DNA of 64,000 nt from the NCBI GenBank assembly GCA_963796105.1, contig CAWCKJ010000004.1:320001-384000 (forward strand), read 5' to 3'. Under the pieces are notes generated by a model. The model saw only the letters and a program-made list of their open reading frames with translations. It searched no databases and was not told the DNA's origin. Below are positions 46,983 through 59,462 of this stretch, piece after piece. This DNA is from a candidate division FCPU426 bacterium (GTDB taxonomy: Bacteria > Oederibacteriota > Muellerivitia > Muellerivitales > Muellerivitaceae). Position 1 is the stretch's first letter; each line of letters starts with the position of its first letter. A program made the translations under genes and the position numbers.

Positions 46983-49553
46983 TTAACGAACGACGAGCAC
47001 TTTGAATTTCGTGTTCTTGGTCGATTGGTCGGCGTAGTGGACTTTGATTCGAACAATATAAAGCCCGGACGCGGCGTGGGAAGGCATCCAGGCGTGACGG
47101 TTTGTGTTGGCGAACTCAAGATGGGCCGTTAATTCCCCCGCGACCGTGTAAATCCACCATTCACTGCTGAGGGGCTGTTTGTCGAAAAACAGCTGGATAG
47201 CCTGTCCATTCGCGGAAACGGTCGGGCCCAGAAGCAATCCATGGCTCGATGGGTTGTATAAAGGCGTGGGAGTAATCGTGGGGGTGTTCGTGATCGTGGG
47301 GGGGAGAGTAATGGTTGGAGTGAGTGTGATAGTCGGCGTGTTCGTGATCGTAAAGGTCGGGGTGGGCGATCCCCGGTAATTCATGACCAATCCCCAATCC
47401 CAAGCGGTGGAAGGCACGGTGACGTTCATGGCACCGCCCGAGGCGGTCGCGGTGCCGGTTGAGGAAAGGGCGCCGGTTTGGGTGTTGTACCAATGGGTGT
47501 TCCAGGTGCCGTTCGTGCCGACTCCGATAAATTGAACCGTTCCAGTGAGGGCCGGGGGGGCGCCGTTGGCAAGGACATACGCGTAATTGTAGTTGCGGTT
47601 GGTCACCCAGGCCGCGATGGTTTGGGCCGACTGGAGGGCGTAGGTTTTCAACCCAGCCACACAGCCCCCAAAGACATAAGTGGTGTCCATCCAATCCGTC
47701 CCCGTGTCGCTCACGAAAAGGGTCGCTGGCCCGGCTGGCACCGGCACCGAATAGGTGGTGTTGGAGACGGCCTGGCTGTTCAAGACCTGGGTCCCATTGA
47801 GGGTGATGTTGAGAATCGGCACCCCGGGCGTGGGGCAGATGTTGCCCACCTGCACCCGGAAATTACCCGCCGCCGGGTAATTACAGATGAAAGTCGGGGG
47901 GTTGACCAAGGTGGGGTGGTAGGAGCCGTAAAGCTCGGAGGACAGACTCCCCACGCCGGGGGACAAGGTGCCGTTGGAATTTACGGTGAAGCGGTTGGCG
48001 GCGGCGACGGTTCCCCACCCCAGGGACCCCGTGACGGTGAGGTCGGCGTAGGAAGAAGCCGTGACCAGGGGTTGGTTGAAGGTGAACCCCGAATGGACGA
48101 AATCCAGCAAGGAAGCGAAGGTGGAAAGCCCCTTGTAGTTGTAATAAAGGTTTTGCGGGTCGATGTAGTCGTCCCACCACCACATGGCCCCGCTCCCGTC
48201 AGACTCGCCTAGCAGGTCTCCCCACATGACGTTATGAAACTCGATTCCGCCGGGGTCCATGGACACAGGGGCGGAGGAGGAACTGACCCCGAACTCCCCC
48301 ACGTGCACGGGTTTGGAGGGGTAACTGCCCCGGTAGTTCTCGACGGTCCCGTGGATGCCGTCTTCCATGGCGGGGGAGGAATTATAAAAGTGTATCTGGG
48401 TGTAATCGATCAAGGAGGAGTTCCAAACATTCGGGTCGAACTGGCTTTCGGCGAAACTGGTGGTGACCAGGTGCAGGCTGTCGAGCGACTTGACGTAAGA
48501 GGCCATGTTTTCAAGCCAGGCGGCCACATCGGCTTGCACCGTGACGCTGGAGGTGTAATTGTCAGTCCACTCGATCTCATTGGCCAATTCCCAACACAGG
48601 GAAGGGTCATAGCCCCAGCGGGCCACGCAATAGCGCAGGTGCTGTTTCCAATAACTGATGGCGGTGGGGTTCGTGAAAAAATCCGTGGTGGTGGAACAGG
48701 GCCCCCCGTTGGTGCTGTTGTAGGGGCTTTGGGCCCAATTGGGATTGACGGTGGAGGAGACTGACCCGTGGTTCAAGAGGCACAGTTCCACCACGATGCC
48801 GTTGGTCCGGGCCTTTTCCAGGTCATAATCCAGCCGCCAGGCGTCGTACTGATAATAGGAGTAATTCCCCAGGCCCGGGGTGGAGTTTGGGTTCGTCCAC
48901 TCGATCTCGTGGTACCAGGGGCACATCCAATAACGGGCGAAATTTGCCCCCTGGGAGGACATCTTGGGAATCCACTGGTCGTAATCGAAGGTTCCCCCTC
49001 CGTAGTTGTCTTCATAGTCCCCCCAGCCCACGTCCTCCCCGATGGGAATGAATTGGGTGTTGTCGTCGTATTGGAAATAGCGTGGATCGGATGAAATCTT
49101 CGGAAAACCCTTGAGCGTGGAAGCGTTGCAATTGAAAGTTTGAGGGCCGTAGGTCCCGGTTCCCGACCCCGAATCCACCGCAGTCAGGTTATAGGTCCAG
49201 GTGCCGGTAGCGTTGGGGGAAAACCGTATCTTCCAGACGGGCGAACCGCTGGAGGTTAAAACCTCGGGCGGCCCCGAGCGGGTATAGGCCTGGTAATAAA
49301 ACCCATAGGCGGTGATGGCCTGAGAACCATTGGTGAAGACACCGTAAACGTTGATCTGGGAGGGGTTGTAAGGGTTGCCGTAGGTTGTCCCGGAAAGGGT
49401 AAAGGTCAGCTCAAATTTATCCAGGCGTTGGATGCTAGTGGAACTGGGGGTGACGCCGGTGAATACAGGCGAGGCCAGCGCTGGGTAAGTGAGGAAAGCC
49501 AGGTATGCAGTTAAGAGAGTCCGCGAAACAGAACGCACTAAAATCAAATTCAA
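46983..49553 (-). CDS. Secreted glycoside hydrolase (DUF5060-like N-terminus, GH5-like catalytic domain), Thr/Pro linker, T9SS-like C-terminal domain
   Basis: Signal peptide; FELTF...NPYNP...WKIRFSP; ARWGY, WELANE, VGEFG, WWWD; TPTIT repeats; IYTVAGE...ASGLYIVRI...KVLVVR. Confidence 0.75.
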   Translation of the reverse strand: MNLILVRSVSRTLLTAYLAFLTYPALASPVFTGVTPSSTSIQRLDKFELTFTLSGTTYGNPYNPSQINVYGVFTNGSQAITAYGFYYQAYTRSGPPEVLTSSGSPVWKIRFSPNATGTWTYNLTAVDSGSGTGTYGPQTFNCNASTLKGFPKISSDPRYFQYDDNTQFIPIGEDVGWGDYEDNYGGGTFDYDQWIPKMSSQGANFARYWMCPWYHEIEWTNPNSTPGLGNYSYYQYDAWRLDYDLEKARTNGIVVELCLLNHGSVSSTVNPNWAQSPYNSTNGGPCSTTTDFFTNPTAISYWKQHLRYCVARWGYDPSLCWELANEIEWTDNYTSSVTVQADVAAWLENMASYVKSLDSLHLVTTSFAESQFDPNVWNSSLIDYTQIHFYNSSPAMEDGIHGTVENYRGSYPSKPVHVGEFGVSSSSAPVSMDPGGIEFHNVMWGDLLGESDGSGAMWWWDDYIDPQNLYYNYKGLSTFASLLDFVHSGFTFNQPLVTASSYADLTVTGSLGWGTVAAANRFTVNSNGTLSPGVGSLSSELYGSYHPTLVNPPTFICNYPAAGNFRVQVGNICPTPGVPILNITLNGTQVLNSQAVSNTTYSVPVPAGPATLFVSDTGTDWMDTTYVFGGCVAGLKTYALQSAQTIAAWVTNRNYNYAYVLANGAPPALTGTVQFIGVGTNGTWNTHWYNTQTGALSSTGTATASGGAMNVTVPSTAWDWGLVMNYRGSPTPTFTITNTPTITLTPTITLPPTITNTPTITPTPLYNPSSHGLLLGPTVSANGQAIQLFFDKQPLSSEWWIYTVAGELTAHLEFANTNRHAWMPSHAASGLYIVRIKVHYADQSTKNTKFKVLVVR

Positions 49554-49740: not shown

Positions 49741-50253
49741 TTAGTTGAACCTTTGGATGTAACCCAGTTGGAAAACGGGGACCACTTGGTTCGTCAGCAA
49801 GACGGCGTCAAGTTCCGCCGCGAGGCCTCCCCAATTGACGTCCATGCCGGCGCCCCCATAATAAAAACCCAGGCCTTTGATCACCGAACCGAGGGAAATA
49901 ATCGTGCTGATAGCCCCTCCCAAATTCAGGTAGCCACCCACCAGGGATAGATTGGCGGAAAAACTTTTCGTGTCAGTTAATTTTTTTGACAGGTCGAGTT
50001 GTACGCTTTCCATCCCCGCCGACGAAAACCCGTTCAGCTTGAAACCATAATCCTTCAAATAATATCCCCCCACCAGGTTGAAGAATGGCGGGATATCCCC
50101 GACCGTCAGTCCCAAAACGGGGTATTCCCCTGAATAAGCTGATGGGTTCGAATCAGCGGCTCCGGCCGCAAGGGGAAAAAGGAGTGTCAAACAAAAGCCC
50201 ATCGAAAACACCAAAGCCTGGCAAAACCGATAGATCATCTTAAATTTCCTCAT
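49741..50253 (-). CDS. Hypothetical secreted protein, possibly a small beta-barrel
   Basis: Signal peptide (AAGA-AD), GGAGG RBS, amphipathic strands, ends QLGYIQRFN. Confidence 0.55.
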   Translation of the reverse strand: MRKFKMIYRFCQALVFSMGFCLTLLFPLAAGAADSNPSAYSGEYPVLGLTVGDIPPFFNLVGGYYLKDYGFKLNGFSSAGMESVQLDLSKKLTDTKSFSANLSLVGGYLNLGGAISTIISLGSVIKGLGFYYGGAGMDVNWGGLAAELDAVLLTNQVVPVFQLGYIQRFN

Positions 50254-50498: not shown

Positions 50499-50737
50499 AT
50501 CTACTACTAGGTTCCCCGGACTTGCTACTAGGAACCGTCAAAACTACTACTAGGAATCCGGAACCTGCTACTAGCTACCGCCGGATCTGCTACTAGGAAC
50601 GCCGAAACCTGCTACTAGGTACCCCGGAACCTGCGGGCAGGGCTCCCGACACCTGCGGGCAGGGTTCTCGGCACCTGCAGGCAGGGCTCATGGACCTGCG
50701 GGCAGGGTTACCGGCACCTGCGGGCAGGACTCCCGGA
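50499..50737. repeat. Array A: eleven 21-22-bp units with a CCT-N6-AGG-type core
   Basis: Six units with an ACCTGCTACTAGG-like core, then five with ACCTGCGGGCAGG, each followed by 8-9 variable nt. A 19-bp duplication follows at 50739-50776. Confidence 0.9.
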
Positions 50738-50837
50738 AAGTTCTCGGGTTCCCGGCTAGTTCTCGGGTTCCTGGCCAGTTTTCTTGGTAAACCATTGGCT
50801 TCTGTTCTTCATCTATATCAAATGCTCCAAGCTCAAA

Positions 50838-50855
50838 CGCCGCTGTTCAGCGGCG
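50838..50855 (-). terminator. Hairpin/terminator after usp
   Basis: CGCCGCTG-aa-CAGCGGCG followed by TTT. Confidence 0.55.
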
Positions 50856-50859
50856 GTGA

Positions 50860-58663: not shown

Positions 58664-59462
58664 TACAGCAACTAGGTACCCCCAAACCTGCAACCAGGCA
58701 CCCTGGTTCTGCTACTAGGTACCGCCAATTCTTCTACTAGGTTCGCTTATGCCCACTGGGCCCACCGGCGTCCGCGGGCAGGGCCTACCGGACCTGCGGG
58801 CAGGGCTACCGACACCTGCGGGCAGGATTGCCGAAAATGTGGGCGTGTTATCCTCCCATGACGGTAGGTGACCACGTCCAGGCCGACGGTGGCTCCCGAC
58901 CTCATGAATACAGGGCCCCCAAACCGTGCCTACAGGGCTTCCGGCCCAGCTATACGGAACTGGGTCATCGGCTTACCGAATACTGGGTTGTACTGGGTTG
59001 GGGCTTCCAATACTGGGTTACGGGTTTTCCAAATACTGGGTTGTACTGGGTTGGGGCCTCCAATACTGGGTTGCGGGTTTTCCGAATACTGGGTTGTACT
59101 GGGTTGGGGCCTCCAATACTGGGTTGCGGGTTTTCCAAATACTGGGTTGTACTGGGTTGGGGCTTCCAATACTGGGTTGCGGGTTTTCCGAATACTGGGT
59201 TGTACTGGGTTGGGGCCTCCAATACTGGGTTGCGGGTTTTCCGAATACTGGGTTGTACTGGGTTGGGGCCTCCAATACTGGGTTGCGTGTTTCCAAATAC
59301 TAGGTTGTACTGGGTTGGGACCTCCAATACTGGGTACGGCGGAAAACCCGTCCACGTACGGCGGGAACCCGACCCCAGATGGCGGGAAACCCCGTCCCCT
59401 GCGGGCATGACCACCAGCGTCTGTGGGCAGGGCCACCAGTACCTGCGGGCAGGACTTTCGGC
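58664..59462. repeat. Array B: composite ~22-bp-period repeat region related to array A
   Basis: CTACTAGG-type units at 58664-58742; CCTGCGGGCAGG-type units at 58770-58826 and 59397-59462; further 22-bp units (GTACGGCGG...) at 59334-59396. Confidence 0.85.
58976..59335. repeat. 53-bp tandem repeat, ~6.8 copies
   Basis: Consensus CC(G/A)AATACTGGGTTGTACTGGGTTGGGGC(C/T)TCCAATACTGGGTTGCGGGTTTT; unit starts 58976, 59029, 59082, 59135, 59188, 59241, 59293. Confidence 0.97.

Follow-up and report, generated by a model that had tools for sequence, protein, structure and literature searches.

A gene-less mosaic repeat array probably related to the arrays upstream of a predicted membrane-anchored, ParB-derived protein family in a candidate division FCPU426 bacterium

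The window analysed here, a stretch of 64,000 nucleotides from the genome of a candidate division FCPU426 bacterium (hereafter G000), contains a phased array of short repeats with mntH and usp on one side and a gene for a 170-aa protein on the other. The usp gene (PF00582; 50860..51288, minus strand) is the last gene of the mntH-usp pair, and the 170-aa gene (49741..50253, minus strand), whose product has a hydrophobic N-terminus and no Pfam match, starts 246 bp from the array. A GC-rich hairpin (50838..50858) lies directly after the usp stop codon. The original prediction, made from the nucleotide letters alone, had placed the array beside a usp terminator; the hairpin is there, but it scores as terminator-like on the plus strand only, whereas usp is on the minus strand. 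Nearby (46983-49553) the window encodes an 856-aa protein of secreted type in which DUF5060 and a Pro/Thr-rich linker are joined to a C-terminal domain; domains of this type are found again beside 12 array loci in G000 and in the genome of a sister species of the same genus (hereafter G001).

The array consists of eleven units of 21-22 bp over 239 bp (50499-50737), exactly as predicted, with heads at 50499, 50520, 50542, 50563, 50585, 50607, 50629, 50651, 50673, 50694 and 50716 and hence steps of 21, 22, 21, 22, 22, 22, 22, 22, 21 and 22 bp (mean 21.7). Its identity at lag 21/22 is 0.59, the top value among 1276 windows of 239 bp (mean 0.28, sd 0.04), its chain score is 6, whereas none of 300 shuffles scored above 3, and it is noncoding, with stops in all six frames. 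The predicted interval ran on to 50776; only the part up to 50737 belongs to the array, the last 40 bp or so being a different, 19-bp repeat module (50731..50780; 2.6 copies) that recurs in other mosaic loci of G000. The first six heads (class A; 50499..50628, minus strand) have 0-2 mismatches to one core and the last five (class B; 50629..50737, minus strand) have 0-1 mismatches to a second, in agreement with the predicted division. Nine of 13 positions are the same in both cores, which differ at the other four (TACT versus GGGC) and are therefore alleles of one frame; the switch amounts to a 4-nt change within a constant 10-bp head, and the B block stays in register with the A block. Palindromic sites had been proposed; the switch of core is real, but the inverted repeat is found in class B only and the heads are otherwise direct repeats of about 10 bp. 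Likewise, the variable tails are 8-9 nt long, as proposed, but the conserved part of the unit covers positions 4-13 and not the full 13-bp core. The idea that the sites face one side of the helix holds exactly at 10.85 bp per turn, whereas at 10.5 bp per turn they drift by 240 degrees over the array.

A second array, absent from the original prediction, shows the same switch from A to B; it lies at 58664-58835 (minus strand), 240 bp from the ATG of an autotransporter gene. It has four more degenerate A heads, a 41-bp step and three B heads, and is part of a mosaic locus (58664-59455) between a Sel1/OmpA gene and the gene for the 1592-aa autotransporter; the same locus holds, on the minus strand (58979..59455), a 53-bp array of 6.8 copies (58979-59335) and further units of 21-22 bp.

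A search of G000 for the heads at 21- to 22-bp spacing, which had been suggested as a check, was productive. Three related head classes gave 12 chains, in which 76 steps measure 22 bp and 18 measure 21 bp; four of the 12 change class, always in register. With sixteen head patterns, 57 clusters were obtained, or 47 loci once those split by insertion sequences (IS) were merged, and a pattern-free count gave 49 loci, or 9.8 per Mb. The periods fall at 19-23, 42-44 and 52-53 bp, and the arrays include several families of equal length but different sequence with short conserved motifs. For G001, at least 25 loci were listed on the basis of three head patterns. Chains of class B are present at many loci of both genomes, and head B is exact in 54 of 75 units in G000 and in 61 of 81 in G001. 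The original prediction had staked itself on a period and core conserved in relatives, and the sister species keeps both the period and the heads; among the 31 genomes of the taxonomic family, the B doublet is found in two (G000 and G001), both of one genus. Scans of genome, metagenome and viral collections for the heads returned 10, 18 and 0 loci, respectively, which on inspection were unrelated repeats, close records having possibly been excluded. Of the other repeats in these genomes, a tandem family of 75-77 bp, distinct from the phased arrays, is present in G000 (C2:112809-113346, C2:120575-121189 and C3:732524-732760) and in G001, and two CRISPR-like arrays with different repeats lie at G000:C2:364559-366962 and C16:43514-45739 (periods of 71 and 61 bp).

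Within the units, positions 4-13 are nearly invariant, with departures from the majority base of 0.030 (G000) and 0.019 (G001) per site, whereas under the same filter positions 1-3 depart at 0.23 and 0.21 and the tails at 0.30 and 0.21 per site. This contrast between head and flank, 7- to 11-fold, is seen in arrays that are mostly without a gene of their own. The tails form a related repertoire, with identities of 0.49-0.71 (0.53 between the species) against 0.29 for random sequence. Array sites are common to both species at 6 of 19 mappable G001 sites, compared with 2 of 77 control gaps (p 0.0006), and the shared sites mostly carry a different head in G000 and in G001. Arrays lie at synteny breakpoints in 8 of 13 cases against 20 of 57, which is no significant excess (p 0.12).

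Clustering of 309 array neighbours brought out one recurring protein family, with a helix-turn-helix-like N-terminus. In G000, where gene calls are crude (2899 genes, 72% coding), an array is found 31-234 bp from each of the five intact genes of this family and from three fragments. We fetched 32 close genes of the family, all lacking the CTPase domain, from the loci that the searches gave; they are a part of the matches listed and were not picked for arrays. A private phased array (at least five copies, no more than 650 bp upstream) precedes 30 of the 32, each array-bearing gene having its own head, and 19 of the 20 genes fetched from five other genera have such an array upstream, compared with 7 of 732 control genes in G000 and 0 of 56 control windows in relatives. 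As for the two misses, an IS110-type insertion separates gene and array in one, and in the other a 53-bp array is left uncounted by the chain score. Among distant homologs, most of which keep the ParB N-domain, an upstream array is found in only 1 of 14. The family is small (57 clusters at E ≤1e-30 among 1.84 billion); it is multi-copy in 9 of the 31 genomes of the taxonomic family, with 6-7 paralogs per genome in this genus, and its profile reaches 16 of 99 genomes of the phylum. Across 29 loci of family genes there is no other conserved neighbour beyond generic families, and no ParA partner.

Proteins that are more alike at profile positions 103-117 have more similar heads (rho 0.26-0.27, corrected p 0.004-0.009, for 27 pairs, with kin not independent). 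The same holds marginally for positions 70-78 (p 0.066, with the same dependence among kin), but not for the helix-turn-helix itself; over the whole domain the covariation is weak (rho 0.12; two versions gave p 0.027 and p 0.064, kin again not independent), and a cruder earlier version gave the same positional pattern. In ParB, two helices beyond the recognition helix touch DNA, and four residues suffice to redirect specificity (PMC7383237), which makes the divergence of heads among paralogs plausible.

The ancestry of the family was approached through its distant homologs and through its predicted fold. Of 12 distant homologs scanned, 11 match Pfam ParB_N (nine above the cut-off) and six also match HTH_ParB; in the array-linked members the protein starts a few residues ahead of the DNA-binding domain, and they have no ParB_N match. 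For the predicted fold of a family member (pLDDT 83.5), Noc, Spo0J, ParB and SopB take the top ranks in Foldseek (probability 0.9-1.0, E ≥0.08, TM 0.45-0.5), and the top ranks of VIA-align are ParB-parS (Z 7.6, rmsd 11.8), Spo0J (Z 6.8, rmsd 3.3 over 94 residues) and KorB (Z 6.6). When PDB sequences were searched with a profile of the family, nothing was found, and the leads in the ESM Atlas are all below 0.9, including ParB HTH clusters at 0.78. Together, homology and the modelled fold identify the N-terminal domain of the family as ParB-derived, with structural matches that are weak one by one. A hydrophobic 19-mer is present in 29 of the 32 members, one of these 29 being a broken fragment; the predicted transmembrane helix is often followed by a conserved C-terminal domain of about 250 residues, with weak PDZ matches in 4 of 17 members, and several members have only a short tail. 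Two G000 genes (C3:513318-516080, or L176, and C3:264435-265805, or L175) keep the ParB N-domain and have no array. In L176 the N-domain is combined with a hydrophobic helix and with the C-terminal domain that it shares with other members, an arrangement that looks ancestral. The product of G000:C4:1322950-1323702 (L178) has a degenerate N-domain with no Pfam match, and its gene has an upstream array; it is possibly an intermediate in the loss of the CTPase domain. In a further subgroup the DNA-binding domain is interrupted midway by an insertion of 20-90 low-complexity residues (G023:C31 172098-172586, G023:C50, G022:C12 and G042:C6).

The orientation of the arrays was also considered. At 25 of 30 G000 loci the array strand, as written in the original prediction, is opposite to the regional majority gene strand, the heads having been grouped into one polarity class by eye before the strand test; among 14 co-oriented sites of G001, 13 have the array on the strand opposite to that of the flanking genes. 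This polarity, which arrays without a gene keep, is explained by the orientation of the cassettes formed by array and gene, and polarity relative to replication and to local transcription is inseparable here. A KOPS- or Chi-like motif was rejected, as heads outside arrays occur at chance (12 versus 9.6 expected for B, 1 versus 0.5 for A) and GC skew and KOPS counts give no clear replichores; a Rho-loading site was also rejected, the excess of C over G being negligible (0.019; 27 of 45 loci). Contigs C3, C4 and C12 of G000 show a strong regional bias in gene strand (up to 95-100%) with a weak GC skew, and a DnaA-like gene is found at C4:858872-860320.

What ties the window array to the family is its heads. 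Head A is the head found upstream of a family gene of the sister species, G001:C45:76490: within 160 bp upstream of that gene, the A 10-mer (at most one mismatch) occurs in five copies on the gene strand and in none on the other, and read on the minus strand the class A heads of the window have the orientation seen upstream of family genes. An ortholog of G001:C45:76490 was not found in G000 (96.8% complete), the best matches reaching 35% over the full length and 52% over the DNA-binding domain; the latter belongs to C4:1196545. The array of this same gene carries the cassette head nearest to B, with 2 mismatches in 10 and little strand preference (15 versus 10), and no private B array precedes a family gene in either G000 or G001. 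That head B is conserved in both species although neither has a private B gene suggests a living reader; the best local candidate is the 219-aa paralog at G000:C4:1196536. The flanks add a further link: in G001 a complete cassette of array and gene, with a head that agrees with A at 7 of 10 positions, precedes the ortholog of the 170-aa gene by 1.5 kb, and the usp ortholog stands at another place, with no array behind it. The window itself holds no remnant of a family gene, which bears out the earlier statement that no cognate gene is visible there; the reader is likely to be encoded outside.

Orphan arrays are the rule in G000, with no family gene within 1 kb at 39 of the 47 loci. One of these orphans shares 87.5% identity with a G001 cassette array, and at one syntenic site (G000:C4:723706-725063 and G001:C33; L236) the two species have different array-plus-gene cassettes, which together indicate that cassettes are exchanged and genes lost while the arrays stay. 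Elsewhere, orphans are rare: none was found in the 400 kb sampled of G022 or in the 400 kb sampled of G002; one G022 head has no orphan loci, one G019 head has two and a G016 head has one. Since G022 has seven family genes and no other array in those 400 kb, orphan arrays are evidently not necessary to the system.

That the window array descends from the cassette system is, on this evidence, very probable. Because it is akin to the rows that front the genes of these predicted membrane-bound ParB offshoots, it is likely to be a landing strip for such proteins, and our preferred reading, to which we assign a probability of about 0.55, is that it is a gene-less mosaic relative of the family-gene arrays, still bound in trans and pinning the DNA to the inner membrane. 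Each protein would read one asymmetric 10-bp half-site, as a monomer or as a membrane-held oligomer. ParB and Noc load once and slide by means of a CTP clamp; with this clamp lost, a row of sites two helical turns apart would be needed and would take the place of CTP-driven spreading. Binding would hold the DNA at the membrane, and a row upstream of the protein's own gene would in addition repress that gene. The window locus may be a former cassette site from which the gene was lost, or a copy moved by recombination between arrays, and the A/B switch would mark the point where two site classes were joined by recombination or conversion with the 22-bp register kept. The original prediction of a centromere-like, protein-binding array is thus upheld in spirit, now with a ParB-derived family tightly linked to such arrays. 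Against a tether stands the argument, made for Noc, that permanent attachment to the membrane may hinder segregation (10.1101/2021.02.11.430593).

The array may instead have come from a cassette and be bound by nothing now, a satellite that recombination spread and made uniform in a genome rich in IS, with polarity and head conservation simply inherited. We consider this rather unlikely, but several observations point to it: the A-cognate gene was not found in G000, most loci are orphans, their density in G000 contrasts with their absence from the 400 kb samples of G022 and G002, the A heads of the second window array are degenerate, a G000 orphan is close to a G001 cassette array, and copies of IS21, IS3 and a TIRtron-like element lie in or beside arrays. 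It accounts poorly for the strong contrast between head and flank kept in mostly orphan arrays, for the conservation of head B in both species without a private gene, and for the excess of shared array sites, most of which have a different head.

Membrane-bound regulators of the ToxR/CadC type have an N-terminal DNA-binding domain, a transmembrane helix and a periplasmic domain, and bind direct-repeat operators. The family described here resembles them in having a DNA-binding domain, a predicted transmembrane helix and an extracytoplasmic domain, but its DNA-binding domain is ParB-derived, its arrays comprise 5-22 sites and no clear regulon signal was found. An operator at which such a regulator controls the 170-aa gene and, at the second array, the autotransporter gene would fit the position of both window arrays, which end 240-246 bp before a gene of export type in the orientation of a cassette, as well as the extracytoplasmic domain of many family members, whose weak PDZ matches might suit a sensor. 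However, at 14 loci with a homolog of the 170-aa gene, among them that of G001, the 1.1 kb upstream contain no array, and hydrophobic N-termini are not enriched behind orphan arrays (8 of 20 versus 337 of 941, p 0.81, in a small sample with crude gene calls). We consider an operator function improbable.

Iterons share with the window array both the period and the anatomy of head plus tail, and the original prediction had named them. Much the same anatomy is seen at sopC of the F plasmid, with its twelve 16-bp sites separated by 27-bp spacers (10.1101/2021.01.24.427996). This tandem of about 12 sites is read by the ParB-type HTH protein SopB and has a period of 43 bp, and 43-bp periods are common among the arrays studied here; SopB, however, is a CTPase that is soluble and dimeric, has ParA as its partner and reads one array on each replicon (10.1101/2021.01.24.427996), whereas the present sites are half-site-like, spaced by 21-22 bp, chromosomal and numerous. 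The array could then serve an integrated mobile element or a secondary origin as its centromere or iterons, and that cassettes are exchangeable between sites would agree with this. It is nonetheless very improbable: genes for Rep, ParA, an integrase or transfer do not recur among the 309 array neighbours or at the 29 loci of family genes, the viral contigs gave no match, and the 47 loci are distributed around the chromosome. The iteron reading in particular finds no support, as no Rep gene recurs next to the arrays.

Mobile elements were considered as makers of the arrays. Two IS21 families, IS3 and a TIRtron-like HUH element (TIRYT) often lie in or beside G000 arrays, whereas two IS1595 families do not (1 of 30 and 0 of 24), nor does a 476-aa DDE family (0 of 21); the TIRtron-like elements adjoin arrays on one side only. 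A REP/BIME- or MITE-like repeat made or moved by the HUH transposase would find some agreement in the TIRYT-like G000 loci, of which 6 or 7 of 17 have an array at one end by inspection (3 of 7 in a distance test), and an orientation bias is expected of single-strand transposition. However, TIRYT is found in 19 of the 31 genomes of the taxonomic family, and none of 28 such loci fetched from outside G000 has an array within 1.5 kb; TIRYT is therefore not the maker of the arrays and was rejected as such, the mobile elements being visitors. Moreover, the flanks of the window array have no shared leader, tail or terminal inverted repeat, and polarity is better explained by the link to the family genes, so that little credence can be given to a transposase-made repeat. 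TIRtrons (PMC3733652) have their counterpart here in the TIRtron-like elements beside some arrays, and the BrickBuilt MITE (PMC4596501) is a dispersed intergenic 23-nt minisatellite; the window array differs from TIRtrons, REPs and MITEs in lacking a leader, a tail, terminal inverted repeats and a stable hairpin unit, and the TIRYT loci of relatives have no arrays.

Finally, a transcribed guide RNA array with short repeats and short spacers, CRISPR- or TIGR-like, was the other option of the original prediction, and it is scarcely credible: the constant part followed by a variable part of 8-9 nt and a possible read-through from usp would suit it, but the tails are a related repertoire (0.53 versus 0.29) unlike acquired spacers, the array has no Rfam match, its folding is no stronger than that of shuffles (z -1.20 and -1.26), G000 has no Nop domain and no Cas or Tas effector lies beside the array.

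The preferred reading, a row of sites bound in trans by membrane-anchored proteins, has its closest parallels in Noc and its NBS sites in Bacillus subtilis and in ParB/parS, which share the ParB-type DNA-binding domain (PMC7383237; 10.1101/2021.02.11.430593). In that group, specificity changes with few residues and Noc recruits DNA to the membrane (PMC7383237; 10.1101/2021.02.11.430593). The array-linked proteins differ from ParB and Noc in several respects: they have no CTPase N-domain; a predicted transmembrane helix and an extracytoplasmic domain stand where Noc has an amphipathic helix; rows of asymmetric 10-bp direct repeats replace single palindromic 16-bp sites to which a dimer binds; and, compared with ParB/parS, there is no ParA neighbour and each of the 6-7 paralogs per genome in the genus has its own head. 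In a full-text literature search that covered few subscription papers, no account was found of a ParB that is transmembrane, lacks the CTPase and has private arrays, and the word transmembrane is absent from the main text, as far as accessible, of a 2025 survey of ParB fusions (10.1101/2025.10.10.680097).

A second body of work concerns the arrays themselves. Subirana and Messeguer described constant-length, noncoding bacterial repeats of 20-23 and 52 nt (PMC8161180; PMC6749651; PMC8625621), a published puzzle for which the accessible text gives no binding partner (PMC8161180); they proposed a protein that polymerises on the repeats and, in that text, named none (PMC8161180). The present arrays are like those repeats (PMC8161180) in having at least four noncoding repeats of about 20-23 or 52 nt, in forming families of equal length with short conserved motifs, and in being lineage-specific with sites partly shared by relatives, here 2 of 31 genomes and 6 of 19 sites. 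The 52-nt repeats are, in the accessible text, confined to Firmicutes (PMC8161180), whereas in the uncultured lineage studied here a single protein family is linked to arrays of 21-22, 43 and 52-53 bp.

The window array itself may be only a relic. The arrays as a class, including that of 52-53 bp, are nevertheless tied gene by gene to a ParB-derived family, which provides about 30 natural candidate pairs of protein and site. More broadly, ParB might be recast as a set of diversified transmembrane DNA anchors with orthogonal 10-bp codes, in which rows of sites would replace the sliding CTP clamp and gene-less arrays of mixed code would pin the chromosome at defined, oriented positions; this wider picture is tentative, and we regard it as possible rather than probable. 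If true, it would mean that a ParB can work without a CTP switch, the repertoire of ParB, Noc and KorB would gain a stable tether between DNA and membrane or a membrane-bound repressor, and the paralogs would offer orthogonal DNA-binding pairs for the labelling of loci. Should the anchor reading be correct, the family would be the first named reader for the constant-length bacterial satellites of 21-22, 43 and 52 bp.
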